Shown here: one piece after another, positions 11,722-44,583 of the stretch
Layout of the letters: each line of letters begins with the position of its first letter
Position numbering within the stretch: the stretch's first letter is position 1
Translations under genes and position numbers: made by a program
The notes under the pieces: generated by a model
Seen by the model: only the letters and a program-made list of their open reading frames with translations
Told to the model about the DNA's origin: nothing
The model's database searches: none
Origin: Deltaproteobacteria bacterium
GTDB lineage: Bacteria; Desulfobacterota; Binatia; UTPRO1
Direction: 5' to 3'
Assembly (NCBI GenBank): GCA_016200545.1
Contig: JACQEO010000084.1
Location: 5,528 to 69,527 of the forward strand
Length of the DNA stretch: 64,000 nt

Positions 11722-13921
11722 CCGCCGTCTCCGCGGCGTGCGCGCCCTCGCCGCGCCGCTGTTGGCGCTCACCGCGCTGGTCACAGGTCACGCCGACGCC
11801 GCCGGCCCGCTGATCGTGAACGGCGCCGGGACGCCGCTGGTGTGGAGCGGCGGCGTCGTCTCGTGGAATCCCGATCGCGGCACGCTCGGCACCCTCTCGA
11901 ACGCCGAGACCGTGAGCCTCGCTAGCGACAACTTCGCGAAGTGGCAGGCGGTGCCGACCGCGGCGCTCGCGATCTCCAACACCGGGGCGCTTCCCGTCGA
12001 CGTCACCACCGCCAACGTGAACGCGTTCATCGGTATCTGCGGCGACGGTCTCAGCCCGATCGTTTTCGACACCGACGGTTCGATCACTGATTCGCTGTTC
12101 GGCGTCGGCGCCTCCAATTCCATTCTCGGTTTCGCCGGTCCGGAGTGCGGCTCGCTGGTGCCGCCGGTGATCACCGAGGCCTCCGCGGTCCTGAACGGCA
12201 AGTTCATCGACGGCATTGCGACCGCGGGCAATCCGGAGATCAGCATCACGAGCTTCGCCCCGGTCCTGCTGCATGAATTCGGTCACTACCTCAACCTCGA
12301 GCACTCGCAGATCAATCTCCTCGAGGCGTTCGATCACAACGCCGCCAATGACGACACCATCGCGACGATGTTCCCGTTTCTGGTGAACGGCACCGAGGAG
12401 TCGATCCTGTCTCGCGATGACGAGGTCGCGATCTCGACGCTCTATCCGACGGCGGCGTTCAGCACCGCGTTCGGACGCATCACCGGCTCCGTGCTCCGTA
12501 GTGACGGGGTGACGCCGTTCCAGGGTGCGTACGTGATCGCCCGCAACGTCGCCGATCCCCGTCACGACGCCATCGGCTACGCCTCGGGCGAGCGCTACGT
12601 CCCGAGCGCGGCCGGTGGTCCGCCGGCTCCCGCGCTGCAAGGATTCTACGAGTTCCCGGGCCTCACGCCGGGGGCGAGCTACACCGTCGAGATCGAGCAG
12701 ATCTATGCCGGCTTCACCGGCGGTTCGAGTGTCGGCCCGTTCAGCACACCCGTCGTCTTGCCGGGGCCGGCCGAGTTCTGGAGCGGAGCGAACGAGGCCG
12801 CCGCTGACCCGCCCGACGACCCCAACGCGCCGGGCACGCCGATCATGGCCGTCGCGGCTGCGACGACCAGCGGCGTCGACATCGTCTTGAACGCCCTCGT
12901 GCCGCCGCCGAACGACGCCTGCGCCGACGCCACCAGCATCGCCGCCTTCCCATATGGCGACGGCGAGAGTACCGCAGGCGCGACCAGCGCATCGGGCGAT
13001 CCGATCCAGAACTGCAGCCCGGGCACGACGACCGCGAACGCCAACAGCGTCTGGTACCGCTTCACGGCACCGGCGGACGGCACCGTGACCGTCTCCACGA
13101 CCGGGAGCGACTACGACACCGTGCTCTCCGCCCACACCGGCGCGTGTGGCACGCTCGCCACCGTCGCCTGCGACGACGACATGACCGCTACCAACTTGCA
13201 GTCGGCGATCGGGTTCGCGGTGTCGGGCGGCACCAGCTACCTCGTCGAGGTCACGCAGTACGGCGCGCCCGGCGGTGGCGCGCTGCAGATCGCGGCCACG
13301 TTCACCGCGGGAGCCGCGGCGGGCTGTAATATCCCCGCGCCGGGAGCGTGCATCCCCGGAAAGGGCAAGCCGAACAGCGATTGCGTGACCGAGTGGCTGC
13401 TCGAGCCAGTGCCGCCGATCGACCGCGCGAAGGTGCCGCGCCGTAACGTCCCGGCGGCACGTCTCGCCTGCCACGACGGCGATCCGAGCTGCGACTTCGA
13501 CGGCGGCATCAAGGACGGCGGCTGCACCTTCCACGTAGCGGTGTGCGTGAACAACGACGATCCGCGCGCCGCGGCGGCCGGCTGTGTGCCGACGTCGATC
13601 GCGAGCTACCTCGTCAAGAAGCCGAGCGCGACGCGACCGAAAGACGCCGCCGACGTCGCCAACGGCGCGGCGCTTCGCAACGCGATCGCGGCGCTCGCAC
13701 TCTCCGGCGGCACCGTCGCGGGCGGGCTGGTCTCGTTCGTGCCGGCGGAGTCGATCGCGAACACCTGCACGCCCTTCCAGAACATCCGCGTTCCGATCGG
13801 CGCGCGGACGCTGCGCACGCGCGCGGCGACCGGGGCCGGCGTCGTCGACACCGATGGGCTGTCGCTGCGGTGTCTCCCAGCCGCGGCGGCCGCGGCAGCG
13901 CCGCGCCGCGGGCATCACTAG
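11708..13921 (+). CDS. Secreted metzincin-type zinc metalloprotease (matrixin-like HEFGHxxxLEHS) with a pre-peptidase C-terminal (PPC-like) domain and a Cys-rich C-terminal module
   Basis: Signal peptide 'LAAPLLALTALVTGHADAAG'. Zinc motif 'VLLHEFGHYLNLEHSQ' (HExxHxxxxxH). A PPC-like beta domain ('…NSVWYRFTAPADGTVTVSTTGSDYDTVLSAHTGACGT…'). A C-terminal ~198-aa Cys-rich tail. Confidence 0.7.
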   Translation: MRRADRRLRGVRALAAPLLALTALVTGHADAAGPLIVNGAGTPLVWSGGVVSWNPDRGTLGTLSNAETVSLASDNFAKWQAVPTAALAISNTGALPVDVTTANVNAFIGICGDGLSPIVFDTDGSITDSLFGVGASNSILGFAGPECGSLVPPVITEASAVLNGKFIDGIATAGNPEISITSFAPVLLHEFGHYLNLEHSQINLLEAFDHNAANDDTIATMFPFLVNGTEESILSRDDEVAISTLYPTAAFSTAFGRITGSVLRSDGVTPFQGAYVIARNVADPRHDAIGYASGERYVPSAAGGPPAPALQGFYEFPGLTPGASYTVEIEQIYAGFTGGSSVGPFSTPVVLPGPAEFWSGANEAAADPPDDPNAPGTPIMAVAAATTSGVDIVLNALVPPPNDACADATSIAAFPYGDGESTAGATSASGDPIQNCSPGTTTANANSVWYRFTAPADGTVTVSTTGSDYDTVLSAHTGACGTLATVACDDDMTATNLQSAIGFAVSGGTSYLVEVTQYGAPGGGALQIAATFTAGAAAGCNIPAPGACIPGKGKPNSDCVTEWLLEPVPPIDRAKVPRRNVPAARLACHDGDPSCDFDGGIKDGGCTFHVAVCVNNDDPRAAAAGCVPTSIASYLVKKPSATRPKDAADVANGAALRNAIAALALSGGTVAGGLVSFVPAESIANTCTPFQNIRVPIGARTLRTRAATGAGVVDTDGLSLRCLPAAAAAAAPRRGHH

Positions 13922-29850: not shown

Positions 29851-30534
29851 TCACCCGGCGGCGAGCCGCCCGCGACCGCCGAGCCGTGGCCGACCGGCGA
29901 GCACGCGCCGGCCGGCGCGCGTGCCGACGCCGCGCATGAAGACGTCGACGACGGTCGCGACGAGACGCTCGAGACCGTCTTCACGGGTCCGATAGCGGTT
30001 CACGCCGCGCATCATCCCGAGGAGCATCTCGGCGGCGATCCGGCAGTCGATCGCGCGCACGTGACCGGCGGCCGTCGCCTGCTCGAGCGCCTCCTGGACG
30101 AGAGACGAGAGCTGGGCTCGTTGCCGCAACCATTCGCGCGCGTCACCGTCGGACTTGGACTCGTGGCCGTGGATGAGCGCGAAGAAGAATCGCCGGTCCC
30201 AGAAGAACGCCAGCGTGCCGCGCACGATGCGCTCGACCTGTCGCGCCGGCGCGTCGCCGGCCGCGAGCGCCGTCTCGAGCTCGGCCCGGAGGCGCGCGAT
30301 GCCGTCGAACATGATCGCCAGGTAGAGCTCGCGCTTGCTGCGAAAGTGGCGGTAGAGCGTCCCCTTGCCGACACCGCACGCCGCCGCGACCTCGTCCATC
30401 TGCACTTCGTGGTATTGGCGGCGCGTGAAGATGGCCTCGGCGGCCTGGAGGATGGTCTCGCGCAGGCGAGGGATCGGCGGGCGTCCGCGCCGCCGCGGCA
30501 GGCGTCGCGCCTGGATGGCGGGGCGCGGCGTCAT
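29851..30534 (-). CDS. TetR/AcrR-family transcriptional regulator
   Basis: HTH '[47 protein letters not shown]'. ATGA overlap with the upstream RND gene. Confidence 0.8.
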
Positions 30535-33500
30535 GCGCGCGACCCCGCGGCCGCCGCGACCGGTCCGCGCAGTCGTCGCCGGACGTGCACGCACCACAGC
30601 CGGAAGCGGTCGAGGTACAGGTAGACGACGGGGGTGGTGTAGAGCGTGAGCAGCTGGCTCACCAGCAGGCCGCCGACGATGGTGATCCCGAGCGGCTGGC
30701 GCAGCTCGGCTCCCGTTCCGCCGCCGAGCGCCAGCGGCAATCCCGCGAGCAGCGCCGCCATCGTCGTCATCATGATCGGCCGAAACCGCAGGAGACACGC
30801 CTCGTAGATCGCCGCCTCCGGCGTCTTCCCCTCGCCCCGCTCCGCCTCGAGCGCGAAGTCGATCATCATGATCGCGTTCTTCTTCACGATCCCGATCAGC
30901 AAGATGATCCCGATCAGCGCGATCACGCTCAGATCCGTCCGACAGAGCAGCAATGCCACCAGCGCCCCCACTCCCGCCGACGGCAGCGTCGACAAGATCG
31001 TGAGCGGATGGATGTAGCTCTCGTAGAGCACGCCGAGCACGATGTAGACGGTCACCAGCGCCGCCGCGATCAACCACGGCTCGTTTGCCAGCGACGCCTG
31101 AAACGCCTGCGCCGTCCCCTGAAAGCTCGCGCGGATGCTCGCCGGCAACTCGATCTCCCGCGCTGCCGCCGTGATCGCCGTGACGGCCTCGCCGAGGGCC
31201 ACCCCCGGCGCCAGATCGAACGACAACGTCACCGCCGGGAACTGCCCCTGGTGATTCACCGCCAACGCCGTCGTCGCCGACGCCACGTGCGTGAAGGAGC
31301 CGAGCGGTACCGGCGTGCCATTCGCCGGTCGGACGTACACGTCGCGCAGCGCCGCGGGACTCTGCCCGTACTGCGGCGCCACCTCCATTACGACGTGGTA
31401 CTGATTGAGCTGGGTGTACATGGTCGACACCTGCCGCTGCCCGAAGGCGTCATAGAGCGCGTCGTCGATCTGCTGTGGCGTGATCCCGAGCCGCGCCGCC
31501 GTGTCGCGGTCGATCACCACCGACGCCTCGAGACCGCCGTTTTGCGCGTCGCTCGCGACGTCGCGCAACTCCGGCAGCGCGCGCAGCCGGTCGACGAGGC
31601 GCGCCGACCACGCGTGCAGCTCGTCCGCGTTCGGCGACTCGAGTGTGTACTGGTACTGCGTACGGCTGACGCGGTCCTCGACCGTCAGGTCCTGGACGGG
31701 CTGCATGAACAGCGTGATGCTGTCGACGCTGGTGAGCCGCGACTGCAAGCGCCGGATGACGTCGGTCGCGCTCACCTGTCGCGCCGCGAGCGGCTGCAGA
31801 TTGATCTGGATGCGGCCGCTGTTCATCGTCGTGTTGGTGCCGTCGATGCCGATGAACGACGACAGACTCTCCACCGCGGGATCCTCGAGGATCACTCCCG
31901 CCAGCGCCTGCTGACGCGTCGCCATGGCCGCGAACGAGACCGTCTGCGGCGCCTCCGAGATGCCGAGGATGACGCCGGTATCCTGCACCGGGAAGAAGCC
32001 CTTCGGCACCACGACGTAGAGAACCAGGGTCGCGATCAAGGTGGCGATCGCGACCACGAGCGTCGCCGTCTGGTGTCGCAGCACGACCCGCAGCGAGCGC
32101 GCATAGCGCGCGATCACCGCGGCGAAGAAGCGCTCCGAGGCACGGTAGAGCCGGCCCTGCGCCGCCGCCGGCGTATGCTGCAGGAGGCGCGCGCACATCA
32201 TCGGGGTGAGCGTCAGCGACACCACGGCCGAGATCAAGATGGTGACGCTGAGCGTGACCGCGAACTCGCGGAAGAGCCGCCCGACGATGTCGCCCATGAA
32301 GAGAAGTGGGATCAGCACCGCGATCAGTGATACGGTGAGCGACACGATCGTGAAGCCGATCTGCTCCGATCCCTTGAGGGCGGCGCGTAGCGGCGTCTCG
32401 CCCGCCTCGATGTAGCGCGCGATGTTCTCGATCATGACGATCGCATCGTCGACGACGAAGCCCGTCGAGATGGTGAGCGCCATGAGCGAGAGGTTGTCGA
32501 GGCTGTACCCGAGCAGGTACATCACGCCGAAGGTGCCGACGAGCGACAGCGGCACCGCGACACTCGGGATGATCGTCGCCGCGAAGGTGCGGAGAAAGAG
32601 GAAGATCACCAGCACCACCAGCGCGACGGTGAGCATGAGCTCGAACTGCACGTCTTTGACCGAGGCGCGGATGGTCGTCGTGCGGTCGGTGAGGATCGAG
32701 ACCTGGACGGCGGCGGGCAGCGCGCTCGTGAGCTGCGGCAGGAGGCGATGGATGCGGTCGACGACGCCGATGATGTTCGCGCCCGGCTGCCGCTGTACGT
32801 TGAGGATGACGGCCGGGGTGTCGTTCGCCCACGCTGCCTGCTTCACGTTTTCGACGTCGTCGATCACCTCGGCGACGTCGTCGACGCGCACCGGCGCGTC
32901 GTTCCGGTAGCCGACGACGACGGGACGGTAGTCGGCGCTCGTGAGCAGCTGATCGTTGGCCCCGATCGTGTACACGTGGTGCGCGCCATCGAAGTTTCCC
33001 TTGGCTTGGTTGACGCTCGCCTGCGCCACCGCCGCGCGCAGGTCCTCGAGGCCGAGGCCGTAGCCCGCGAGCGCCGTCGGGTTGGCGCGGATGCGGACCG
33101 CGGGCTTCTGCCCACCACTGATGCTGACCAGCCCGACGCCGGGGAGCTGCGAGATCTTCTGTGCCAGCCGCGTGTCGGCGAGGTCCTGGACCTTCCAGAG
33201 CGGCAACGTCGCCGAGGTGAGCGCCAACGTCAGCACTGGAGCGTCGGCGGGATTGGTCTTGCTGTAGATCGGCGGGTTGGGAAGATCGCGCGGCAGGTAG
33301 GTGGAGCCGGCGTTGATCGCCGCCTGCACCTCCTGCTCGGCGACGTCGATGTCGAGGTCGAGCGCGAACTGGAGCGTGATCACCGAGCTGCCGAAGGAGC
33401 TCGTCGACATCATCTGGTTCAGGCCGGGGACCTGCCCGAACTGTCGCTCGAGCGGCGCCGTCACCGAGGAGGCCATCACGTCGGGGCTCGCCCCGGGGTA

Positions 33501-33650
33501 GAAGGTCAGCACCTCGATCGTCGGGTAGTCGACCTGCGGCAACGCCGACACCGGCAGTTGGCGATAGGCGATGGCGCCGGCGAGGAGGATCGCCGCCATC
33601 AGCAGCGAGGTCGCGACCGGCCGCAGGATGAACGTGCGCGAGGGATTCAT
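30531..33650 (-). CDS. RND-family multidrug efflux transporter (AcrB/HAE1-like)
   Basis: 1039 aa from '[47 protein letters not shown]…' with 12 TM helices and large periplasmic loops. Confidence 0.9.
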
Positions 33651-34873
33651 GCGCGCGGCGCGCCGGGCGACGGCGCGCCGCCCGGCATCGTGACGTTCAC
33701 CGCGCTGCCCGCACGCAGCTTGTCGACGCCGTCGACGACGACCGTCTCGCCGGCCGCGATGCCGCTGTCGATCGCGGCGTCGGCGCCCACCGTCGGCCCG
33801 ACGGTCACCGGACGCACCTCGACGGTGCGGTCCGCCCGCACCGCGTAGACGAAGGTGCCCTGCGGGCCGCGCTGGATCGCCGCCGTCGGCACGATGATCG
33901 CTTCTTTGCGGACGTCGAGAAGCAGGCGCACGTTCACGAACTGCTTCGGGAAGAGTACGTCGTCGTCGTTCGAGAACTCGGCTTTCAAGCGCGTCGTGCC
34001 GGTGTTCCGATCGATCTGATTGTCGACGGTGAGCAGCGCGCCGGTCGCGATCTGCATCGTGCCGGCGCGGTCGTACGCCTCGACCGGGAGGCGCGCGCCG
34101 CCGCGCAGCTTCGCGAGCACGGCGGGCAGGTCGTCCTCCGGCAGCGTGAACACGACGGCGATCGGTTGCACTTGCGTGATGACGACCAGCCCGGTGTCGT
34201 CCGTGGCATGGACGATGTTGCCGACGTCGACGAGCCGCAGGCCGACGTGACCGCTGATCGGCGCGGTGATGCGGCAATACGTGAGCTGCAGCCTGGCATT
34301 GTCGATCAGGCCCTGGTCGAGCTTGATCGCACCCTCGAACTGCCCGGCCGCGGCGAGCCTGTCGTCGTAGTCCTGCTTGGCGACGATCCCCTGCGCGAGG
34401 AGGTCGTGAAACCGCGCCAGCGTGGCGCGGGCGTCCCGCAGCTGCGCGAGATCGCGCGCCATCTGCCCTTCCGCCTGCGTCAGCTGCACCGCGAACGGAC
34501 GCGGATCGATTTCGGCGAGCAGGTCGCCTTCGTGCACGAACTGCCCTTCCCGAAACGCGACGTTGACGAGCCGGCCATCGACGCGGCTCTTCACCGTGAC
34601 GGTGTTGAACGCCGTCACCGAGCCGAGTCCGGTCAGGTAGACCGGCACGTCACCCTGCCGCGCCGGCGCGCCGACGACGGGGACGCTCGCCGCCGCCGTC
34701 GTCACCGCCGCGGCGGGACCGGCATCGGGCCTACGCGCGCCGAGCGACCAATAGCCGCCGGTCGCGACGACCGCGAGCACGGCGAGGCCCAGCCACCAGC
34801 GGCGCGCCCGTGGCGCGTCCGGCGCCGCGGCGGCGACGGACGGGGGAATCAAGGGGGGCGGGGTTGGCATCAT
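33647..34873 (-). CDS. RND efflux periplasmic adaptor (membrane fusion protein)
   Basis: HlyD/AcrA-like coiled-coil and beta-barrel ('…[45 protein letters not shown]…'). Overlaps the RND start. Confidence 0.85.
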
Positions 34874-34997: not shown

Positions 34998-35570
34998 ATG
35001 ACCCTCCGCATCCTCGGTATTGCGGGCAGCCTGCGCGCCGCCTCGTTCAATCGCGCTCTCCTGCACGCCGCGATCGAGGTCGCTCCGGAAGGTGTCGCGA
35101 TCGACATCTTCGACGGCCTCGGCGCGATCCCTCCCTACAACGCCGACGTCGAGGCGCAAGGCGACCCCGCGGCCGTCGTCGCGCTGAAGACGGCGATCGG
35201 CGACGCCGACGCGCTGCTGATCGCGACGCCCGAGTACAACTATGGCGTTCCCGGCGTGCTGAAGAACGCGATCGACTGGGCGTCGCGGCCGCCGGGCAAG
35301 TGCGTCCTGAACGGCAAGCCCGCGGCGCTCATGGGCGCGACGCCGGGCGGGACGGGCACCGCACGCGCCCAGCTCGCGCTTCGCCAGAGCTTCGTCTTCA
35401 CCGATACGTGCGCGCTCCTCCGCCCGGAGGTCCTGATCGCGCGCGCCCACGAGAAGATCGATGCCGCGGGGCGTGTCACCGACGCGACGACGCGCGAGCT
35501 CATCCGGCGGCTCCTCGACGCGCTCGTCGATTGGACCCGCCGCGTCGGCGCCCCGCGCCCGCCCGCGTGA
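34998..35570 (+). CDS. NADPH-dependent FMN reductase (FMN_red family; ChrR/YieF/ArsH-like)
   Basis: 'MTLRILGIAGSLRAASFNRALL…LIATPEYNYGVPGVLKNAIDWASR' is a flavodoxin-like fold NAD(P)H:FMN oxidoreductase. Confidence 0.8.
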   Translation: MTLRILGIAGSLRAASFNRALLHAAIEVAPEGVAIDIFDGLGAIPPYNADVEAQGDPAAVVALKTAIGDADALLIATPEYNYGVPGVLKNAIDWASRPPGKCVLNGKPAALMGATPGGTGTARAQLALRQSFVFTDTCALLRPEVLIARAHEKIDAAGRVTDATTRELIRRLLDALVDWTRRVGAPRPPA

Positions 35571-35577
35571 CGCCGCC

Positions 35578-36240
35578 ATGACCGATCGCACACGCGCGCG
35601 GACGCTCGCCCGGCAGTCGCTCGACGCCGGTGACGCGGTCGGGTGGTTCGAACGGCTCTACTCCGAGGCGGCGCGCGGCGAGGCGCTCGTACCCTGGGCC
35701 GACCTGGCGCCGAATCCCCGCGTCGTCGCATGGCTCGATCGCGCCCGTCCGACGCGCGGTCGCGTGCTCGACGTCGGCTGCGGGCTCGGCGACACCGCCG
35801 AGGAGCTGGCGCGCCGCGGCCTCACGGTCGTCGCCGTCGACGTCTCGCCGACCGCGGTCGCGCAGGCGCGGGCGCGCTTTCCGTCGAGCCGCGTCGACTA
35901 TCGCGTGCTCGATCTCCTGCGGCTCCCCGTGGAGCTCGCCGGCGCCTTCGATCTCGTCGTCGAGTGCTACACCCTGCAGGTGCTGCCGCCGGACGCGCGC
36001 GCCGATGACGGCGCGGCGCTGCGCCGCGCCGTCACACCGGGCGGCACGCTTCTCGTCGTCGCGCGCGCCCGCGAGTCGAACGAGCCGGAAGGACAGATGC
36101 CCTGGCCGCTCACGCGCAGCGAGATCGAGGCGATCGCGGACGACACTCTCCGCCTCGCCACCTGCGACGACTTCGTCGATCGCGAGCAGCCGCCGGTGCG
36201 GCGCTTCCGCGCGACGTTCCGCCGCGACGCCCGGTCGTGA
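35578..36240 (+). CDS. Class I SAM-dependent methyltransferase
   Basis: Motif I 'RVLDVGCGLGDTAEELARRG' and motif II 'FDLVVECYTLQVL'; 8 nt after the FMN reductase. Confidence 0.75.
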   Translation: MTDRTRARTLARQSLDAGDAVGWFERLYSEAARGEALVPWADLAPNPRVVAWLDRARPTRGRVLDVGCGLGDTAEELARRGLTVVAVDVSPTAVAQARARFPSSRVDYRVLDLLRLPVELAGAFDLVVECYTLQVLPPDARADDGAALRRAVTPGGTLLVVARARESNEPEGQMPWPLTRSEIEAIADDTLRLATCDDFVDREQPPVRRFRATFRRDARS

Positions 36241-36262
36241 CGTCGGCCGTCGGGGAGGATGG

Positions 36263-36721
36263 ATGGCTGCGGTCCTGATCGGTTGCGGCGGATTCCTGCT
36301 CGCCGTCCTGTGGATGGATCTGCTGTTCGACGTACAGGTGCGCCGCCTGGCGGGTGCGGATGCCGCCGCGTCGACCGCGGCCCTGGCGTCGATCGTGGCG
36401 TACTATCGGCGGGCGACGATCGAAGCGTTTCCGATGAATCGCCTGATCGGCGCCGTCATGCTGGTGCAGCTCTTCGGCATCGCGCACGAGCTGCTGACGC
36501 GGACGGTCGCCGGCGCGCGTGCGCTTGCGGTCCTCGTCCTCGGGGTCGCACCGATCGCGCTCGCATTCGCGCGCATCGTCCCGGACGCGATGCGCCTCGG
36601 CGCCGCCACCGACGCAGCCGCGGTCCAGGCGGACCTCGCTCGCCGCATCTACCACGCCCACCTCGTCTGCGCGGTCGCGATCGCGGCGTTCACCGCGATC
36701 CAGATTCAGCTCGCGCGTTGA
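36263..36721 (+). CDS. Hypothetical 4-TM membrane protein
   Basis: RBS GGGGAGGATGG before ATG. 'MAAVLIGCGGFLLAVLWMDLLFDVQ…' is hydrophobic with four predicted helices. Probably third gene of the FMN-reductase/methyltransferase operon. Confidence 0.55.
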   Translation: MAAVLIGCGGFLLAVLWMDLLFDVQVRRLAGADAAASTAALASIVAYYRRATIEAFPMNRLIGAVMLVQLFGIAHELLTRTVAGARALAVLVLGVAPIALAFARIVPDAMRLGAATDAAAVQADLARRIYHAHLVCAVAIAAFTAIQIQLAR

Positions 36722-36730
36722 GCGCACGCG

Positions 36731-38689
36731 TCAGCGCGCAGGCAAACGTTGCTCGGCCTCCGCAAGCGCCGCACGGGCGCGCTCGAAGGTGGGATCGCGG
36801 CGGAGCAGATCGCGCCACTCGATCGTCGCCTGCGCGGGACGACCCGCCGACCACTGTGCCACGCCGAGCGTGAAGCGCGTCTGCGAGACGTCCGGGTCGA
36901 TCGCGAGCGCGCGCGCGTACGCCTCGGCCGCTTCGTCAGCGGCACCGATCGTCATCAGGAAATCGCCGTAGGCGGTGTCGCGCCGGAGCGCGGCGACGGG
37001 CACGCTGAGCGCGCGCCAGAGGCCGCTCGTCGGCGGTGACGGACTGTTGCGAGCGTGGCGCGCCGCGAACTCCCGCTCCGCCCGCTCGCGCACCGCGCGG
37101 TGGGCGTCGTCGGTCGGGAGATACAGCGATGCCGTCTCGTCGTAGTAGACGAGCTCCCACCCGTGCCCCGCGAGCAGGTAGCGCACCAGCGGAAAGCGAT
37201 TCGACCACACGTGATAGAGGAGCGCGTAGTCGGGTGCATAGCGCGTCACGACAGTCGGCCAGGTTCTCGGATCGTCGAGGGCGGCGAAGTAGAATCGGAA
37301 GAACTCCTCCGGGTACACCTCGAGCCGTCCGTCGACGAAGACACGCTCCGCGGGGAAGCGGCGCCACGCGAGGTAGCCGCCGGTCGCGAGGCAGTTGAAC
37401 GGACGGCCGCCGATCCCGACGTCGCGCGCGAACTCCTCCGCCGCGATCGGGAAGTGGAGCGACGACACCCCGAGGCCGAACTCGCGTTCGATGTCGAGAG
37501 AGCGCGAGAACCGATTGGTGACGACGCTCGCGACGAGGAGCGCGAGCACGACGATGACACCGCCGGTCGCCACGGGCGCGAGCGCCGCCGCGAGACGGCC
37601 GGATGCCGCCGGCGCGCGCGCGCGCGCGTCGCGCCGCTTTTCGCCGCGCGCCGTGGGCGACGGGTCCGCCGAGCGGGTGCAGAGCGGGCCGAGGTTGGCG
37701 GCGATCGCGGGCACGGCGACCCAGGCGAAGAGCGCCACGTTGCGGAGGGCCTGCGTCGACAGCGCCGCCAGCAGCGCGGTGACGAAGAGACGGCCGAGGT
37801 GCCAGCGCCTGATGCTCACGATGAACGACACCGCCACGAAGATGATCGTCGCCACCCACGTGTACGCGAGCGGTACGCCGTATCCCGATTGGAACGGCGG
37901 CCGGAACTCGCCGATCCGTGCCGAGAGGAGCGAGCTGCCGGTCACTCTCGGCAAGAGCTCGAGCGGAAAGAGCACGCCGCGTAGGCCGTAGGGATTGAGG
38001 AAGCAGGCGGCGGTCGCCAGCACCAGGACCAGCGTCAGCCGGCGCCATTCGCCCGGGCTCGCGCCGCTCGCCGCGCGCCACCCCCGCGGCAGGGGGAGGA
38101 ACGCGAGCGTCGCGCCCGCCCAGTAGCATCCGATCACGACCAGGCCGACGGCGAAGATTCCTTGCGAGTTCGTCCACACGACCTGTAGCGGGACGAGCCA
38201 GTAGAGCGCGCGACCGTTGCGTGGAAAACCGTCGAGGAGCCACAGATACGTCGCGAGGAGCACGAACGACAGCAGCTCGGGCCGCGGCACGAACCGCGGA
38301 CTGGCGACGACGAGCGCGATCGCGATCAGTAGCGCGACGAGCACGTCGGGCGCGAACCGTCGCGCCGACGCATGGAGAATCGTCACGGTCGCGAGCACCA
38401 GGACGACGGCGAGAATGATGCAGCCGTCGGCGCCGCCGAGCGCGTACGCGGCGTAGAGCACGAGCTGAAACACCCAGTGCAAGTCGATCCACGGGTGGTC
38501 CGGCGTCGTGTACGCGAAGGTGTTGCTGACCGGCCAGCGCCAGGTCGTCATCATCAAGCGGCCGGCCGCGAGGTGGTACCAGACGTCGTAGTCGTCGATC
38601 GGCCGCAGCGTGAAGACGATCCCGAGGAGGGCCGTGAGCCCGACCGCGACCTGCGACCAACGCCGACCGAGTGGAGACGTCCGCGGCAT
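36731..38689 (-). CDS. Polytopic GT-C-type glycosyltransferase-like membrane protein (PMT_2/ArnT/TMTC-like) with C-terminal TPR repeats
   Basis: About 11 TM helices with an acidic first-loop motif ('LRPIDDYDVWYHLAAGRLMMTTWRW'). The C-terminus carries TPR-like repeats ('…AEAYARALAIDPDVSQTRFTLGVAQWSAGRPAQATIEWRDLLRRDPTFERARAALAEA'). Confidence 0.55.
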   Translation of the reverse strand: MPRTSPLGRRWSQVAVGLTALLGIVFTLRPIDDYDVWYHLAAGRLMMTTWRWPVSNTFAYTTPDHPWIDLHWVFQLVLYAAYALGGADGCIILAVVLVLATVTILHASARRFAPDVLVALLIAIALVVASPRFVPRPELLSFVLLATYLWLLDGFPRNGRALYWLVPLQVVWTNSQGIFAVGLVVIGCYWAGATLAFLPLPRGWRAASGASPGEWRRLTLVLVLATAACFLNPYGLRGVLFPLELLPRVTGSSLLSARIGEFRPPFQSGYGVPLAYTWVATIIFVAVSFIVSIRRWHLGRLFVTALLAALSTQALRNVALFAWVAVPAIAANLGPLCTRSADPSPTARGEKRRDARARAPAASGRLAAALAPVATGGVIVVLALLVASVVTNRFSRSLDIEREFGLGVSSLHFPIAAEEFARDVGIGGRPFNCLATGGYLAWRRFPAERVFVDGRLEVYPEEFFRFYFAALDDPRTWPTVVTRYAPDYALLYHVWSNRFPLVRYLLAGHGWELVYYDETASLYLPTDDAHRAVRERAEREFAARHARNSPSPPTSGLWRALSVPVAALRRDTAYGDFLMTIGAADEAAEAYARALAIDPDVSQTRFTLGVAQWSAGRPAQATIEWRDLLRRDPTFERARAALAEAEQRLPAR

Positions 38690-38698
38690 GGCCCGCGA

Positions 38699-39673
38699 TC
38701 AGCGTAGAACGCGATAGCCGCCGAACACCGCAACCCAGAGGACGGCGACGATCAGCGCGTACTTGAGGGCATAGTACACCTGCCGATTCGCCTTCTTGAA
38801 GCGCTTCAGCGGTGCCCGCGTCCGATAGACATGCTCGAAGACGCGATTCGCGAGACCGACTTCCTCGCCATCGACGTTCTTCGACGCGGTGAGGCCGACG
38901 ATGTGGCGGATCACGAAGCCGTTGAGGGCGCGCATGACGGCGGTACGCAACGGCCGTTCGACGTCGCAGAAGAGGATGATGCGCGTCTGATCGGTGCGGT
39001 TCTCGAAGCGATGCACGTAGGTCTCGTCGAAGACCAGGTCCTGACCGTCTCGCCAGGAGTAGGATTGACCGTCGACGAAAATCCGGCACTCGTCGCGGTT
39101 GGGCGTGATCAATCCGAGATGGTAGCGGATCGAACCCGCGAACGGATCGCGGTGCTCGCCGACCGCGGCCTGCGGTCCGAGGAGCGCGAACATCGCCCCG
39201 TGGACGGTCGGAATCGACTCCACGAGCGCGACCGTCCGCGGGCAGAGCGCCCGCGCCGAGGGCAGCGGCGCGCCGTACCACTTCAGGTAGAACCGCTTCC
39301 ATCCCTTGCGAAAGAAGGTATTGAACCCGAGGTCGTCGTGGCGCTCGGAGGCGCGGATGTGACCCGCCTCGCAGAGACGCAGCGCCTCCTCGCGGATCGT
39401 CCGCCAGTTGGCACGCAACGACGCGACCTCGGGGAACCGCTCGACGTCGAGCATCGGCGTCGTCGGGACGCGCGAGAAGAGGTAGACGAGCACGTTGTAA
39501 GGCGCGAGGAACGTCGAGTGATCGGTGAGCTGGCGTCGGAAACTCAGGCGTACCCGACCGCGGTAGTGCACGTAGAGCGCGGACGCGAGGAAGCCCGCAA
39601 AGAGGACGAGCCGCGTGAGGGCGAGGGCGCTCATCCGACGCGCACGGTCGTCTGTCGTTCCATGACGCGCCAT
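38699..39673 (-). CDS. Aspartyl/asparaginyl beta-hydroxylase family Fe(II)/2-oxoglutarate dioxygenase (AspH/LpxO-like) with N- and C-terminal TM anchors
   Basis: '…FFRKGWKRFYLKWYG…HGAMFALLGPQAAVGEHRDPFAGSIRYHLGLITPN…CRIFVDGQSYSWRDGQDLVFDETYVHRFENRTDQTRIILFCDVERP' is the AspH cupin core. TM helices at both termini. The stop lies 10 nt from the downstream glycosyltransferase-like gene. Confidence 0.7.
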   Translation of the reverse strand: MARHGTTDDRARRMSALALTRLVLFAGFLASALYVHYRGRVRLSFRRQLTDHSTFLAPYNVLVYLFSRVPTTPMLDVERFPEVASLRANWRTIREEALRLCEAGHIRASERHDDLGFNTFFRKGWKRFYLKWYGAPLPSARALCPRTVALVESIPTVHGAMFALLGPQAAVGEHRDPFAGSIRYHLGLITPNRDECRIFVDGQSYSWRDGQDLVFDETYVHRFENRTDQTRIILFCDVERPLRTAVMRALNGFVIRHIVGLTASKNVDGEEVGLANRVFEHVYRTRAPLKRFKKANRQVYYALKYALIVAVLWVAVFGGYRVLR

Positions 39674-39826
39674 CTCTGACGATGCGCGGCGTTTTTGGCA
39701 AGTCCCGTCGCGCGGACGCGGGCAGGCGCGCACGGCTCTCCCGTCCTGGTTGCATTTCGACGACCGACTGATCCACAATCCGCGCCTGCGCCCCTGAAGG
39801 CGCGATCGTCACGCACGGAGGACCCC

Positions 39827-41263
39827 ATGGCCCAGACAGCGCAGCTTCGGCAGTTCGACGTCGTCGAGAACGAGGCGCAGCGGGTGTTCGCGGCGCAGCG
39901 CGCGGCATACCTGCGCGAGCCCTACCCCAGCATCGAGGAGCGCACCCAGAACCTCACCAAGCTCGAGCGCATCCTCGTCGACAACGTCGACGCGATCGCC
40001 GAGGCGATCAACGCCGACTTCGGCTGCCGGTGCGCGGAAGAGTCCAAGCTCCTCGAGATCTTCACCTCCGTCGACGGCATCCGGCACACACGGCGGAAGC
40101 TCCGCGCGTGGATGAAGCCGCAGCGTCGGCACGTCTCGATGCTGTTCGCGACCGGATCGAACCGCGTCATCCCGCAGCCGAAGGGCGTCGTCGGCATCGT
40201 CTCGCCGTGGAACTACCCGCTCTTCCTCACCGTCAGCCCACTCACCAGCGCGCTCGCCGCGGGCAACCGTTGCATGATCAAGATGGCGACCAACTCGAGC
40301 ACGCTCTGCCGGCTGCTCGCCGAGAAGTTCACGGAGCAGTTTCCCGAGGAAACCGTCACGATCCTTCCCGGCGTTCGCGCCCAGGACTTCTCCACCCTCC
40401 CCTTCGACCACATCATCTTCACCGGCTCGGCCGACGCCGGCCGCACCGTGATGCGCTCGGCGTCCGAGAACCTCACCCCGGTGACGCTCGAGCTCGGCGG
40501 CAAGTCGCCGACGATCGTCTGCGACGACTTCGACGTCGACGCCGCGGCCGCGCGTATCCTCTACGGCAAGTTCGTCAACGCCGGCCAGACCTGTCTCGCA
40601 CCCGACTACGTCTTCGTACCCGAGGCCAAGCGCGAGCAGTTCGTCGCCGCGGCGCGCCGCATCCTCACCGAGCGTTACCCCGATCCGAACGCCGGCGGCT
40701 ACACGTCGATCATCGACGAGAAGTCGTACCGCCGGCTGCGCGCGACGCTCGAGGACGCGGAAAAGAAGGGCGCGCAAGTCGTGTCGCTCGTCCCCGGCGC
40801 GACCTTCAACGACGCAATGCGGAAGATCCCGCAGCACATCGTCCTCGACCCGACCGACGACATGACGATCATGCGCGAGGAGATCTTCGGGCCGCTCCTC
40901 CCGGTGAAGACCTTCCGCCACATCGACGAGGTCATCACCTACGTGAACAGCAAAGACCGCCCGCTCGGCCTGTACTTCTTCACCAACGACAAGGAGCTCG
41001 AGCGCACGCTCCTCTACCGCACGATCTCCGGCGGCGTGACGATCAACAACTGCGTCTTCCACGTGGCGCAGCACGACCTGCCCTTCGGCGGCGTCGGCGC
41101 GAGCGGCATGGGCCACTACCACGGGCACGAGGGCTTCGTGGAATTCAGCAAGATGCGGCCGGTGTTCACCAACCCGAAGTTCTCGGCGATGCACCTCTTC
41201 TATCCGCCGTACACCAAGCTGCACTCGCGGCTCTTCGCCTTGCTGCTGAAGTTCAAGCGCTAG
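39827..41263 (+). CDS. NAD(P)-dependent aldehyde dehydrogenase (coniferyl-aldehyde-dehydrogenase-like subfamily)
   Basis: RBS GGAGG. Catalytic 'ELGGKSP' and 'NAGQTCLAPDYVFV' (Cys nucleophile); 478 aa. Confidence 0.85.
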   Translation: MAQTAQLRQFDVVENEAQRVFAAQRAAYLREPYPSIEERTQNLTKLERILVDNVDAIAEAINADFGCRCAEESKLLEIFTSVDGIRHTRRKLRAWMKPQRRHVSMLFATGSNRVIPQPKGVVGIVSPWNYPLFLTVSPLTSALAAGNRCMIKMATNSSTLCRLLAEKFTEQFPEETVTILPGVRAQDFSTLPFDHIIFTGSADAGRTVMRSASENLTPVTLELGGKSPTIVCDDFDVDAAAARILYGKFVNAGQTCLAPDYVFVPEAKREQFVAAARRILTERYPDPNAGGYTSIIDEKSYRRLRATLEDAEKKGAQVVSLVPGATFNDAMRKIPQHIVLDPTDDMTIMREEIFGPLLPVKTFRHIDEVITYVNSKDRPLGLYFFTNDKELERTLLYRTISGGVTINNCVFHVAQHDLPFGGVGASGMGHYHGHEGFVEFSKMRPVFTNPKFSAMHLFYPPYTKLHSRLFALLLKFKR

Positions 41264-41297
41264 CGACGTCGCGCCACGGGAGCGTGAGCGCCGCGGG

Positions 41298-41621
41298 TCA
41301 CACGTCGCCGAGGAGGCGGCCGATCTCGCGCACGGCGACCACGAGTTCCCATGCAACGTAGCCGCACACGGCGACGACGGCGATGGACGCGAGCCACTTG
41401 CCCTTCCGATCGAGGTGCGGCGTCCGCCACACGAGCGGCAACGCGAACGGTCCGAGCATCGTGAGCGCGAGCAGCACGATCCACAGCGGCCGGTAGTACC
41501 AGGCGATGAACGCGCCCTGCCCTTGCCCGCATCGCCGGCAGTAACGATCGTCGGCGTCGATGGCGAGGCCGCAGCTCCAACAGTGTCCGGGTGACGGAAC
41601 GACACCCGCGGGCGTCGCCAT
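41298..41621 (-). CDS. Small zinc-ribbon membrane protein (CxxC…CxxC followed by 2 TM segments), hypothetical
   Basis: '…SPGHCWSCGLAIDADDRYCRRCGQ…WIVLLALTMLGPFALPLVW…WLASIAVVAVCGYVAWELVV'. The start is uncertain (Met36 or Met46 of the track ORF). Confidence 0.45.
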   Translation of the reverse strand: MATPAGVVPSPGHCWSCGLAIDADDRYCRRCGQGQGAFIAWYYRPLWIVLLALTMLGPFALPLVWRTPHLDRKGKWLASIAVVAVCGYVAWELVVAVREIGRLLGDV

Positions 41622-41701
41622 GCGACGGCCCTCGTCAGCGACGTCGGACATCGACAGCGAGTCTCTCACGAAACCGCGACGACGGGGATGGGGCCGACAT
41701 C

Positions 41702-42898
41702 TCAGTCCGCGGTCGCCTCGGAATACACCGGCCGCGTCGCCGCCGAATACGGCCACGGCTCCGCGTCCGTCACGGCGATCAGCGCGCGCACGAAGGCGTC
41801 CTGGCGCGCGCGCGCGTCTGGCACGGGAACCCCGTGGTGCAGGACCGCGAAGCGCACGACCCCGAAGCGCCGGGTGCGGAGCGCGCCGGCGAGGGCGGAG
41901 GCACCGACCGAGCCGAAGGTGCCGGTCTTGCCGACGACGATCCCGGGACGTTCGGTCACCCGATCCTCGAGTGTCCCGTGATCGATGCCCGACACCGGGA
42001 GCGCCGCGGTGAGGTCGTTGCCGTGACGCGCGAGCTCGTCCATGAGCGCGCCGAGGAGCGCGACCGCAGCGCGTGGGCTCATCCTGTTGGTCTCGCCCGC
42101 GCCGGCGCCGTTGTCGATCACGATCTCGTCCCGCATCGCTTCGGGTACGTGCGCGCGGGCGTTCTCTTGAACGGCGGCCGCACCGCCGACCGCGTCGGCC
42201 GCAAAGTGGAAGACGTTGTTCGAGTAGCAGTTGAGCGCCTTGACGACGTGGAGGAGCGGCGGCGAGTGGAGCGCGGCGAGCGCTCGCCCGGGGCCCGACT
42301 TCGATCGCCGGCCGAGAAAGACGAGCGCGGTCTCGCGCAAACCCTCCGACGTCCCGTCGAGGTCGGTGACCAGCGCGCGCGCCTCGCCCCCGGCCTTGCC
42401 TGCGAGCACGGCGCCGAATCGCCGCCCACCCGGGTCCGGCTGCCAGTCGAACAGCAGCGGCCCGCGCACGACGAGTCGCCCCTCGACGACCCGCAGCCCG
42501 CGCGTGTGTAGCCGTCGGAGCAGCAGCAACGCGCTCTCGTCGACCAGGAACGGGTCGCCTCCGCCCTCGACGACGAGGTCTCCCGCGAGACGTCCCGCGC
42601 GTAGCGGACCGGCGCCGCGCAGGCGCGTCTCGAAGCGATGCGTCGGACCGAGACGCGCGAGCAACGCGAGCGACGTCGCGATCTTGGTGACCGATGCGGG
42701 ATGCACGGCGTGATCGGCGGCTTGCGCGACGAGGATCGTACCGTCGCCGGCGACGGCATACACCCCCTGTCCCTCGCCGACGGTCGATCGCGCCAGCCCT
42801 TGCAGTGCCGGCTCGGCAGCGGCGAGGGTCGCGTACAGCACGAGAGCGAGCGCTCCCATCGTCCTCGTCGCGGGCGACTCGGGTGGCATGGCGAGCAT
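41702..42898 (-). CDS. D-alanyl-D-alanine carboxypeptidase/endopeptidase, PBP4 (S13, DacB-like)
   Basis: Ordered SxxK 'ASVTK', SxN 'YSNN' and KTG 'GKTGT' motifs, plus a signal peptide. Confidence 0.7.
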   Translation of the reverse strand: MLAMPPESPATRTMGALALVLYATLAAAEPALQGLARSTVGEGQGVYAVAGDGTILVAQAADHAVHPASVTKIATSLALLARLGPTHRFETRLRGAGPLRAGRLAGDLVVEGGGDPFLVDESALLLLRRLHTRGLRVVEGRLVVRGPLLFDWQPDPGGRRFGAVLAGKAGGEARALVTDLDGTSEGLRETALVFLGRRSKSGPGRALAALHSPPLLHVVKALNCYSNNVFHFAADAVGGAAAVQENARAHVPEAMRDEIVIDNGAGAGETNRMSPRAAVALLGALMDELARHGNDLTAALPVSGIDHGTLEDRVTERPGIVVGKTGTFGSVGASALAGALRTRRFGVVRFAVLHHGVPVPDARARQDAFVRALIAVTDAEPWPYSAATRPVYSEATAD

Positions 42899-43044
42899 TG
42901 TGCGGACGACTGCCCGGCCGTCAACGAGCGGCCAAACCGTCGCGCCATCCGTCGCGTTCTTCCGCATCATTCCTAGTTGACCGCGCGATCGCGATGTCTC
43001 ACAGTTCGGCAGCAGACGATCCGTTCCATCTCATGAGGTACCGC

Positions 43045-44583
43045 ATGCGAAGGACGACGCGCGCACCGATGAACCCCGAGCCTTCCAACCTGACGCGCGC
43101 ACGCTGCAGTGCGCTGCTCGCGGCGCTGCTGATCGTGGCGCCGGTCGCTCCGTCCGCGCACGCCGCGCCGCGTGGCAAGCGCCACCCGCGCGACGTCGCC
43201 CTCGGTCTCAGCGTGCAACCGGGGCCGCAATGTCACCTCGGTCGTCACACGCTGACGTATCACGGCGGCGACCTCGTCCAGAACGTCGCCGTGTTCATCC
43301 TGTTTTGGGGTCCCGAGTGGCAAACCGATGCCGAGCATCAGGCGGCCGCCGCCTCCCTGCGCACGATGTACCACCAACTCGGCGGCAGTGAGTACGGCTG
43401 CTCGTGGCAGGAATTCGCGTTGCCGGGCAGTCCGATCGGCGGCGGATCGTATGCCGGCGACGAGATCATCCCGACGCCGCCCGTCTCCCCGGGCCAGCAG
43501 CTCGACGACGCCGACATCCAGGCGCGGATCCTGACGGAGGTACAGGCCCACCGCGCGCCGGACGCGACCGACGACACGTTCTATGTCGTCGTGCCGCCCA
43601 AAGGCGTGCCGGTGATCGCCGGTGGCGAGACGGGCTGCGGCGGGACGAACTTCACCTTCTGCGGCTATCACGACAGCTTCGCGAGCGGCGGGAAGCGCCT
43701 CCGCTACACGGTCCTGCCGTACCCGTGCAGCTCGGGCGGCGCGACTTGCTTCGTCGATTTCCAAGAGAGTGTCGTACCCTCCTTCCAGGCCGTCGGCTCG
43801 CACGAGCTCTCGGAGACGGTGACCGATCCCGATCAGCCCCCGGTCGGTGGGAGCGGCTGGTTCGACGACCACAGCGGCGACGAGGACGCCGACATTTGTG
43901 CGAGCGACACTTGCCTCGTCGACCTCCCCGTGGGCGTGGACGCGTTCACCGTCAACTCGCTGTGGTCGAACCTCGGCGGCGACTGTGTCGCCAGCGCTCC
44001 CTGCGCGGTGCCACCGGCCGCGTGCACCGATCCCGCGCCGGGCGCCTGCGTCACCAACACCCGCAGTCCGCAGGCCTGCGACCTCGAGTGGCACGTCGAG
44101 CCGAACCTCACCCGCGACCGCAATGGCTTCGCCGGCGGGGTGGTCTCTTGCGCCGACGGCCAGCCGTTCTGCGACGTCGATGCCACGGCGGACGGCCGGT
44201 GCACGTTCCACGTCGCGGTCTGCCTGAATAGCACCGACCCGCGCTTCGCCTGCACCGCGAGCGCCGTCGATTCCGTGCAGCTGCGCGGCAAGCTCGCCCG
44301 CAGCTCGGACCCGACCGATAACGCGAATGCCGCCGCGCTCCTCCCGGCGCTCGAGAATGCCGACCCCGGCAGCGCCGGCGCCGCGACGGGGAGCGTCGTC
44401 ACGTACACCCCGGCCGCCGCCACCAGCGACGCGTGCAGCAGCTATGTCGACGTCGTCGTCCCGGTGAAGTCGCGCAACGGGCGCATCACACCGGGAAAGC
44501 GTACGCTACAGGTGGCGACGCGAACCGCGACCAGTAAGGTGAGCGAGAAGCTGACGCTGATCTGTACGCCGACGTTCCTCTGA
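43045..44583 (+). CDS. Secreted protein with an N-terminal PHI-1/EXORDIUM-like domain and the same Cys-rich C-terminal module as the metalloprotease at 11708..13921
   Basis: AGGT-N6-ATG. Signal peptide '…CSALLAALLIVAPVAPSAHA'. 'LTYHGGDLVQNVAVFILFWGPEW' resembles the Phi_1 (PF04674) N-motif. The C-terminal 178 aa align with the C-terminal 198 aa of the metalloprotease. Confidence 0.6.
   Translation: MRRTTRAPMNPEPSNLTRARCSALLAALLIVAPVAPSAHAAPRGKRHPRDVALGLSVQPGPQCHLGRHTLTYHGGDLVQNVAVFILFWGPEWQTDAEHQAAAASLRTMYHQLGGSEYGCSWQEFALPGSPIGGGSYAGDEIIPTPPVSPGQQLDDADIQARILTEVQAHRAPDATDDTFYVVVPPKGVPVIAGGETGCGGTNFTFCGYHDSFASGGKRLRYTVLPYPCSSGGATCFVDFQESVVPSFQAVGSHELSETVTDPDQPPVGGSGWFDDHSGDEDADICASDTCLVDLPVGVDAFTVNSLWSNLGGDCVASAPCAVPPAACTDPAPGACVTNTRSPQACDLEWHVEPNLTRDRNGFAGGVVSCADGQPFCDVDATADGRCTFHVAVCLNSTDPRFACTASAVDSVQLRGKLARSSDPTDNANAAALLPALENADPGSAGAATGSVVTYTPAAATSDACSSYVDVVVPVKSRNGRITPGKRTLQVATRTATSKVSEKLTLICTPTFL

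Follow-up and report, generated by a model that had tools for sequence, protein, structure and literature searches.

The DNA analyzed here, referred to as the window, is a stretch of 64,000 nt from an uncultured Binatia bacterium, and it carries on its minus strand an LpxO-like dioxygenase gene followed immediately by a gene for a membrane protein of predicted GT-C fold with a TPR tail (Table 1). An earlier sequence-only reading of this DNA had described the two genes as co-oriented and paired, and minus-strand ORFs for both proteins were indeed confirmed within 36731-39673, with a coding-like GC content at codon positions (GC3 of 0.89 and 0.84 for the two ORFs). The adjacency that it reported also holds, but not the 10 nt that it gave as the intergenic distance, since the membrane protein starts with an ATG at 38689, 9 nt after the LpxO stop codon (38699-38701). 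An in-frame ATG at 39673 would yield a dioxygenase of 324 aa (38699-39673); nevertheless, the start at 39634 appears more likely, because a database protein of 311 aa (P0121), 100% identical, begins at M14 of the longer ORF.

Table 1. Features of the LpxO/GT-C locus and its surroundings, with positions in the 64-kb window.
Feature	Position	Strand	Description or basis
GT-C-fold membrane protein gene with TPR tail (predicted)	36731..38689	-	652 aa
C-terminal TPR region, residues 556-648	36746..37024	-	About 2-3 repeats; TPR_19, TPR_2 and TPR_11 matches
Periplasmic alpha/beta domain, residues 391-550	37040..37519	-	Predicted secondary structure, conservation
Membrane domain, residues 1-390	37520..38689	-	11 predicted TM helices; N-terminus in, C-terminus out
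E261 codon	37907..37909	-	Glu, invariant; predicted TM7-TM8 loop (long, periplasmic)
D35 codon	38585..38587	-	Asp, invariant; the only EL1 helix (H35-49, first periplasmic loop) begins here
Spacer, LpxO stop codon to GT-C-fold ATG	38690..38698	-	9 nt; sequence
LpxO-like Fe(II)/2-oxoglutarate dioxygenase gene	38699..39634	-	311 aa; PF05118, lipid_A_LpxO, identical to P0121
Divergent intergenic region, LpxO/aldehyde dehydrogenase genes	39635..39826	.	Sequence; inferred promoter location
Aldehyde dehydrogenase gene	39827-41263	+	Inverted; separates the S13 gene from LpxO in the window
S13 (PBP4-type) D-Ala-D-Ala carboxypeptidase gene	41702..42970	-	Pfam PF02113

The distance between the LpxO and GT-C genes ranges from 1 to 9 nt in all seven loci that bear the pair (the window plus L001, L014, L015, L061, L090 and L062). 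A spacer of 9 nt is too short to hold a terminator or an independent promoter, and a scan of positions 35400-43200 detected neither terminator-like nor promoter-like sites between the two genes. Because of these short gaps and the absence of intervening sites, the genes are very probably co-transcribed, and separate transcription is disfavored. The promoter of the pair should lie in the divergent intergenic region, where the same scan found no sigma-70-like match just upstream of the pair; no Rfam matches were obtained anywhere in the window. A minus-strand ORF considered in the 36240-36731 gap was rejected, as conservation was better in a plus-strand frame. Besides the aldehyde dehydrogenase and S13 peptidase genes, the neighbors in the window include methyltransferase, FMN reductase and RND efflux genes. 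In L014, L015, L061 and L090, the S13 gene lies directly upstream of the pair, giving the order S13-LpxO-GT-C on the same strand.

The upstream protein matched PF05118, the profile that the sequence-only reading had suggested as a check, from position 2 to 157 of 157 (E 1.3e-47, 162 bits, with a gathering cut-off of 22.6), as well as the NCBIfam model lipid_A_LpxO (NF033391) over its full length (424.4 bits, model positions 2-294 of 297). TM helices are found at both its N- and C-terminus, and its putative iron ligands are provided by an H-R-D motif together with a His located further on; in a phmmer alignment with AspH (5apa), both iron-binding His of the latter are matched ('GEHRDP' and 'YVHRF' versus 'PHTGP' and 'FEHEV'). 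On these sequence grounds, the gene can be assigned to the LpxO/AspH family of dioxygenases with TM anchors, in full agreement with the membrane-anchored Fe(II)/2-oxoglutarate hydroxylase initially described. However, in spite of the full-length alignment, the score remains below the 500-bit equivalog cut-off of NF033391 and, therefore, the lipid substrate may be other than lipid A. The match to OlsC-type ornithine-lipid hydroxylases was lower (118 bits), which makes this a weaker alternative identity.

The AF2 model of the 652-aa protein (pLDDT 93.4) contains 11 TM-length helices, and the count of loop charges gives a positive-inside pattern. All the top Foldseek matches of this model were OST or ArnT structures. 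Among known structures, the closest are STT3/AglB/PglB and DPY19, and not TMTC or ArnT specifically. As modeled, the protein has a GT-C fold, of the GT-CA class, and a C-terminal TPR region. The sequence-only reading was, then, right in describing a polytopic protein of about 650 aa with GT-C architecture and C-terminal TPRs; its specific choice of TMTC/PMT_2/ArnT as the type is not supported. The TPR signal in the protein itself is weak (TPR_19, 25.6 bits, residues 573-646); the family profile strongly matches designed and natural TPR proteins, CTPR and OGT included, and longer C-terminal TPR arrays are present in 10 out of 10 long family members. Topology prediction places the C-terminus, and hence the TPR array, in the periplasm, which corresponds to a TMTC-type layout.

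The membrane domain escaped detection by sequence models. Pfam and NCBIfam searches with the 652-aa protein yielded weak TPR matches only, and those of Pfam with the N-terminal domains of 26 diverse family members gave nothing meaningful. The proposed assignment to PF13231, PF02366 or DUF2723 failed, since none of these, nor PF08409, matched the 652-aa protein or the 26 members at E<=1. When the full-length family profile was compared with PDB sequences, the matches were swamped by TPR proteins, and a TPR-free profile gave 0 matches at E<=10. None of approximately 250 database homologs had a precomputed domain of these types, and a database search with the TPR-free profile gave no homolog with a membrane-domain Pfam assignment bridging to a known GT-C family.

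The first periplasmic loop contains the 'DD…Y' stretch highlighted by the sequence-only reading (D32-D33-Y34-D35), but the doublet itself is not conserved: D32 and D33 both differ between family members, and it is the next Asp, D35, that is invariant (46/46, 26/26 and 15/15 sequences of three alignments). R136-P137, W172, P233, E261 and R316 are likewise invariant in the membrane domain, and R132 and N174 nearly so; the predicted topology places these conserved residues in periplasmic loops or on their borders. In the alpha/beta domain, the invariant residues are D453-x-R455, W511 and D517. GT-CA enzymes have their catalytic Asp at JM1 (PMC12041525), and D35 matches this Asp in sequence position and topology, which makes it a candidate catalytic base. 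The absence of sequence similarity to any characterized glycosyltransferase would suit a GT-C fold devoted to something else, for instance to scaffolding or substrate binding as a subunit (like PIGU in the GPI transamidase) or to a different chemistry. Such a role is, however, quite unlikely, given that charged residues without variation are grouped on the periplasmic side, both at the canonical position in EL1 and in loops further along, and that family members are repeatedly associated with polyprenyl-phosphate GT2 genes and other GT-C genes in several phyla.

The family to which the membrane protein belongs is enormous, with 41,164, 32,224 and 17,656 clusters at 50% identity for E<=1e-3, E<=1e-10 and E<=1e-30, respectively, and it spreads across Binatia, Omnitrophota, Acidobacteriota, Planctomycetota, Elusimicrobiota, Methylomirabilota and Chloroflexota. 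Its members are named in public records only as 'TPR repeat protein' or 'hypothetical', and a literature search on a bacterial TMTC-like family retrieved nothing relevant. The widespread context in Binatia is Lactamase_B followed by the family member, with a converging DegP gene. Distant members have a different type of neighbor: L059 has the order GT2-MTase-GT2 (238 aa)-DUF2304-family member, L060 has YfhO-GT2-GT87-family member, a divergent GT2-GT2-epimerase group is located near the family member in L053, and the small GT2 is encountered again at a distance of up to about 2.3 kb in L019, L021, L036, L094 and L107. This small GT2 best resembles the Dol-P-Man synthase 5mlz (2e-11) and ArnC 9bhc (1.8e-10). 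From these neighbors of distant members we infer the type of donor used by the membrane protein. In the 64-kb window, queries with GT2, DUF2304, GT87 and YfhO gave no matches, so no donor synthase or flippase was found there, nor any GT2 or ArnC-like gene that would indicate an ArnT-type linkage to donor synthesis; an adjacent GT2 or flippase gene was equally absent from every Binatia locus examined.

The nature of the donor also bears on an OST-like model, in which a preassembled glycan would be transferred from undecaprenyl-pyrophosphate to periplasmic proteins, as by PglB and AglB, or to another polymer, with no monophosphate-linked single sugar involved. The invariant EL1 Asp, together with an invariant Glu further along in a long periplasmic loop and an invariant Arg, presumably resembles the D56/E319/R375 arrangement of PglB. 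Nevertheless, this model appears unlikely: a WWDYG-type motif (pattern WW[DE][YFW]G) occurs in 0/46 family members, PF02516 matched neither the 652-aa protein nor the 26 diverse members, the GT2 neighbors of distant members resemble synthases of polyprenyl-monophosphate sugars, and neither Wzx nor initiating-transferase genes were seen next to family members in the loci examined.

As for the pairing itself, most of the family occurs without LpxO. An LpxO gene precedes the family member in five of the 88 loci whose upstream sequence reaches 1 kb or more, all with at least 66% identity, to which L062 can be added; it does so in 0/26 loci at 50-65% identity and in 0/54 below 50%. The six LpxO-linked proteins, near-full-length, fall on one branch of an NJ tree, and three LpxO homologs with 71-77% identity (P0132, P0143 and P0171) all have unrelated neighbors. 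The adjacency is limited to one small Binatia branch and fits a single origin, and neither recurrence across lineages nor more than one origin was observed for the pair (window plus six loci). The conservation of the pair across related genomes, which the sequence-only reading had named as a check of its proposal, did not hold beyond this branch. As an observation of its own, the tight and conserved operon of this clade, often with a PBP4-type peptidase upstream, denotes some selective or regulatory link between LpxO and GT-C, and a functional link between both may be compatible with it.

The sequence-only reading had gone further, proposing a two-step modification in which LpxO hydroxylates lipid A (or a protein) and the same molecule is subsequently glycosylated by the GT-C enzyme. 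The tightness of the pair in seven related loci and the fact that both products are inner-membrane envelope enzymes speak for this sequential scheme. Acyl hydroxyls of lipid A are not known to be glycosylated, and searches of the literature on an LpxO/glycosyltransferase operon or LpxO/GT-C system, and on the LPS of Binatota, found nothing relevant. There is, however, a precedent for the acyl-chain hydroxyl of lipid A as a handle, as AlmG of Vibrio cholerae adds glycine to such a hydroxyl (PMC4402001). Against the scheme, the adjacency is confined to one branch (0/80 loci below 65% identity with upstream sequence, 0/3 LpxO homologs) of a family that mostly lacks LpxO, and, to judge from the TPR tail, the acceptor may be a protein or polymer. 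Furthermore, LpxO works on the cytoplasmic face and its target acyl chain is buried in the membrane (PMC4402001), leaving the product hydroxyl within the acyl region, whereas the conserved GT-C residues are predicted to be periplasmic. The two-step proposal is left unsupported and must be regarded as highly improbable. A variant of it, in which the GT-C member of this clade has been recruited to act together with LpxO and works on the periplasmic face, glycosylating the 2-hydroxyacyl lipid A made by LpxO or a different lipid that depends on LpxO, can hardly be expected to apply; if true, it would represent a lipid A decoration known from no organism.

These observations are integrated, with some preference over the alternatives, by considering the pair as two independent envelope-modifying enzymes joined in a tight two-gene operon in one Candidatus Binatia sub-lineage; that is, they are probably co-expressed without being chemically coupled as two steps of one pathway. 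Briefly, the product of the first gene, an LpxO-type inner-membrane dioxygenase, would most likely 2-hydroxylate an acyl chain of lipid A or a related membrane lipid at the cytoplasmic face. The second, an 11-TM GT-CA protein, would most likely move a sugar from a polyprenyl-phosphate carrier, loaded by a Dol-P-Man-synthase/ArnC-like GT2, to a periplasmic acceptor. In such a reaction, D35 in the first periplasmic loop would act as the catalytic base, R136, E261 and R316 may assist phosphate, metal or donor binding, and the TPR and alpha/beta domains could recruit the acceptor, more likely a protein; these catalytic roles and this acceptor class are deduced from conservation, predicted topology and domain content.

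The pairing, as a local operon of one uncultured lineage, adds little, and it is a poor reason to expect new lipid A chemistry. The chief result came as a by-product: a huge family of GT-C-fold proteins with invariant periplasmic residues, unseen by Pfam, NCBIfam and PDB-sequence models. If it is an active glycosyltransferase, the 652-aa protein would be the founding member of a new, very large GT-C family even without coupling to LpxO, and would point to a periplasmic glycosylation route that is widespread in environmental bacteria yet unrecognized. D35 and E261 are immediate targets for mutation, and the GT2-linked operons of L059 and L060 offer tractable entry points.

When compared with known systems, the dioxygenase is closest to the LpxO proteins of Salmonella, Pseudomonas and Burkholderia (NF033391, PF05118), with which it shares a match over the whole model (2-294/297), a size of about 310 aa, N- and C-terminal TM helices and the H-x-D plus later His iron ligands, and from which it differs in its score (424 bits, under the 500-bit cut-off) and its uncultured Binatia host. 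The membrane protein presents only 10-13% sequence identity to STT3/AglB/PglB (GT66), lacks the WWDYG motif and a PF02516 match, carries a TPR tail and has 11 predicted TM helices, versus 13 in those enzymes. With respect to DPY19 (GT98) and PMT/TMTC (GT39/GT105), there is no PMT, PMT_2 or DUF1736 match at E<=1, the DD doublet is replaced as the conserved element by the following D35, and the membrane part is separated from the TPR by an additional alpha/beta domain. ArnT (GT83), which transfers L-Ara4N to lipid A, is itself devoid of TPR; it gave no sequence-family match and a weaker match than OST, DPY19 and PMT, and no arnBCADTEF-like neighbors are present here. Finally, bacterial three-component glycosylation systems combine a polyprenyl-phosphate GT2 synthase, a small flippase and a GT-C transferase (PMC11127046). 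Judged by its sequence, the GT-C component described here fits none of the described families, and neither the window nor the Binatia loci examined have an adjacent GT2 or flippase gene, whereas distant members of the family are found in the same arrangement as those systems, as illustrated by the GT2 (238 aa)-DUF2304-family member order of L059 and the YfhO-GT2-GT87-family member order of L060.

Two adjoining minus-strand ORFs, an LpxO-like gene and, downstream of it, the gene of a 652-residue membrane protein, were recovered where the sequence-only reading had placed them, with small corrections: the spacer between the LpxO stop and the membrane-protein start is 9 nt long (38690-38698), and the LpxO ORF offers two in-frame ATGs, the second of which is the start of a public 311-aa protein of identical sequence, labelled as a 'Deltaproteobacteria bacterium' MAG protein. 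Many ORFs in the window are spurious because its G+C content is about 70%; both ORFs of the pair display coding-type codon-position GC (GC3 0.89 and 0.84), and their co-transcription is very likely. At 91-96% protein identity, the contig most closely related to this region is L001, from a Candidatus Binatia MAG, and the window itself probably derives from an uncultured member of Binatia.

Features of the window around the LpxO/membrane-protein pair
Feature	Position	Strand	Remarks
RND efflux unit	29851-34873	-	ordinary
TetR-family regulator (ORF)	29851-31077	-	downstream of RND genes; domain in last 200 residues
AcrB-type pump (ORF)	30531-34277	-	Pfam match from residue 213
Membrane-fusion protein of RND unit	33647-34873	-	
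Hydrophobic ORF	36263-36721	+	152 aa; no Pfam match
Membrane-protein ORF	36731-38689	-	652 aa; ATG start
LpxO ORF	38699-39778	-	in-frame ATGs at 39673 and 39634
Aldehyde dehydrogenase	39827-41263	+	PF00171
Large ORF	42694-44583	+	629 aa; no Pfam match
Overlapping ORF	42973-44211	-	412 aa

The upstream protein was correctly assigned to the LpxO family: it matches the entire PF05118 profile (1.3e-47) and aligns end to end with the NCBIfam LpxO model (positions 2-294 of 297) at 424 bits, short of the 500 bits set as equivalog cut-off, while its OlsC score is only 118 bits. Both iron-binding histidines of human AspH are kept in the alignment, the first within an H-R-D motif, and the hydrophobic stretches at the two termini (LTRLVLFAGFLASALYV and YALKYALIVAVLWVAVFGGY) are candidate membrane anchors. 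By homology, the protein is an LpxO-like putative lipid acyl 2-hydroxylase, most likely of lipid A or a related membrane lipid, and its gene adds one more ordinary member to a known family.

The membrane protein is a different matter, and its family is the part of the finding worth following up. Sequence models detect in it only a weak TPR signal (residues 573-646); the GT-C models put forward in the sequence-only reading matched neither the window protein nor 26 diverse homologues, none of some 250 homologues from the database has a Pfam annotation in the membrane domain, their public records are named 'TPR repeat protein' or 'hypothetical', and a TPR-free family profile retrieved nothing from PDB sequences at E<=10. 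A very confident AlphaFold2 model (46-sequence alignment; pLDDT 93.4, pTM 0.93) nevertheless matched AglB (7.9e-5), STT3 (2-5e-4) and ArnT (8.7e-3) in Foldseek. The GT-C assignment therefore holds at the level of the fold and derives from structure alone. With the first 545 residues as search profile, and counting 50%-identity cluster representatives, 41,164 were matched at E<=1e-3, 32,224 at E<=1e-10 and 17,656 at E<=1e-30, in Binatia, Nitrospirota, Omnitrophota, Elusimicrobiota, Planctomycetia, Acidobacteriota, Auribacterota, Methylomirabilia, Ardenticatenia and others. Judged from the modelled fold, the protein appears to belong to a new, very large family inside the known GT-C superfamily. 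C-terminal TPR arrays are the sole extra part of long members (10 of 10), and many distant members end shortly past the alpha/beta domain, which marks the TPR as a common add-on rather than a part of the core. Tandem pairs of family members were also seen on single contigs of an Acidobacteriota MAG (L040, 10001-11263 and 12016-13950) and a Polarisedimenticolia MAG (L043, 541-939 and 3098-3481), which indicates local duplication.

The model contains 11 helices of transmembrane length, and Lys/Arg residues are found at 15 of 61 short-loop positions on the predicted cytoplasmic side and at 1 of 11 on the periplasmic side. Such a pattern is consistent with a cytoplasmic N-terminus and a periplasmic C-terminus, which would put both the alpha/beta domain (391-550) and the TPR (556-648) in the periplasm. 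Polar positions that stay invariant or nearly so across many phyla are D35, R132, R136-P137-(E138), N174, N232-P233 and E261, joined by R316-N317, D453-x-R455, W511 and D517, and the predicted topology would place all of them on the periplasmic side. The 'DD' pair singled out earlier (D32-D33) proved variable; the conserved residue is D35, at the start of the sole helix of the first external loop, which by sequence order and predicted topology would correspond to the place of the catalytic Asp in GT-CA enzymes (PMC12041525). That the protein shares the GT-C fold without glycosyltransferase activity, like PIGU, is quite unlikely. An OST-like enzyme using pyrophosphate-linked glycans is also unlikely: a WWDYG-type motif occurs in none of 46 family members.

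The reading that we favor, and hold to be reasonably probable as a whole, is that of a hydroxylase and a transferase working independently. Salmonella LpxO does not depend on MsbA for its activity, so its active site is assigned to the cytoplasmic surface (PMC4402001); the window enzyme would likewise hydroxylate a lipid acyl chain at the cytoplasmic face. The GT-C-fold protein would take a sugar from a polyprenyl-phosphate donor at the periplasmic face for transfer to an acceptor. The alpha/beta and TPR domains would hold the acceptor, and D35 is the proposed base, with R136, E261 and R316 as proposed binders of phosphate, metal or donor.

The pairing had been taken to suggest hydroxylation followed by glycosylation, and this coupling was not supported. 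In a tblastn survey from the membrane-protein side (49 genome and 78 metagenome loci), and counting only loci that extend 1 kb or more upstream of the gene, LpxO lies directly upstream in 5 of the 8 with membrane-protein identity of 65% or more (L001, L014, L015, L061 and L090), in 0 of 26 at 50-65%, and in 0 of 54 below 50%. L062 carries the pair too, the 3' end of LpxO being present in its short upstream piece, and L084, L087 and L135 lack LpxO although they fall in the top band. Two close relatives with partial proteins, L135 and L084 (the latter 74% identical over residues 3-277), in which about 2 kb of upstream sequence was searched, may have lost the pairing or never acquired it. From the other side, three LpxO homologues on long contigs (P0132, P0143 and P0171; 71-77% identity) have unrelated neighbors. 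In a neighbor-joining tree of Binatia-type proteins of at least 50% identity, all six LpxO-linked sequences included share one branch, which also holds L063 and L076, both without upstream sequence; L090 was too short for inclusion. Within that branch the two genes remain neighbors, separated by 1-9 nt. Such a distribution is compatible with the adjacency having arisen once, and comparative genomics gives no support for chemical coupling; a true two-step pathway, for which the tight spacing might speak, is highly improbable.

In L014, L015, L061 and L090, LpxO is immediately preceded by a same-strand gene for a PBP4-type S13 peptidase; in the window and in L001 the opposite-strand aldehyde dehydrogenase gene separates the two. 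The remaining loci with the pair lack that gene and have S13, LpxO and the GT-C gene side by side on one strand; the dehydrogenase gene looks like a recent insertion splitting an older three-gene cluster. In sister groups and most Binatia, the family member is preceded by a co-directional Lactamase_B/ODP gene and faced by DegP and LPG_synthase_TM, often with an aryl-polyene-like cluster upstream. In L050-L052 and L005-L013, specifically, a DegP/HtrA protease gene faces the orthologue, with LPG_synthase_TM beyond it, and the upstream cluster reads KS-KS-ACP-KR-LolA-ApeP, with an AMP-ligase. In the window, the hydrophobic 152-aa ORF converges on the GT-C-fold gene, their stop codons 9 nt apart; its product is conserved in L001 (90%), L014 (49%) and L015 (54%), better than that of an overlapping minus-strand ORF, which was discarded. 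The 629-aa ORF is 88% conserved in L001, and its last 188 residues show 31% identity to window region 13343-13879; the overlapping 412-aa ORF is conserved in L001 too, so either strand may be the coding one. As the Pfam match of the AcrB-type pump begins inside its ORF, the true start lies close to 33640.

A Methylomirabilia contig carries GT2, methyltransferase, a 238-aa GT2, DUF2304 and a family member, all co-directional, with 4 nt at the last junction; an Ardenticatenia contig (L060) has YfhO, GT2, GT87 and a family member in that order; and a GT2-GT2-epimerase unit lies divergently to a third member. The L060 stretch (1354-7518), with three GT-C-type genes in a row (YfhO, GT87 and the orphan family member) and one polyprenyl-phosphate-type GT2, could serve to build a periplasmic glycan in several steps. 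The closest matches of the small GT2 are an archaeal Dol-P-Man synthase (2e-11) and ArnC (1.8e-10), and in L019, L021, L036, L094 and L107 its relatives lie no more than about 2.3 kb away from family members. This association, absent from the window, concerns a minority of loci (5 of 75 distant loci scanned, plus 3 of 5 looked up). In bacterial three-component systems (PMC11127046), a polyprenyl-phosphate sugar synthase is combined with a small flippase and a GT-C transferase; the distant loci share this gene layout and, by analogy, provide a consistent hint that family members may work in arrangements of this type.
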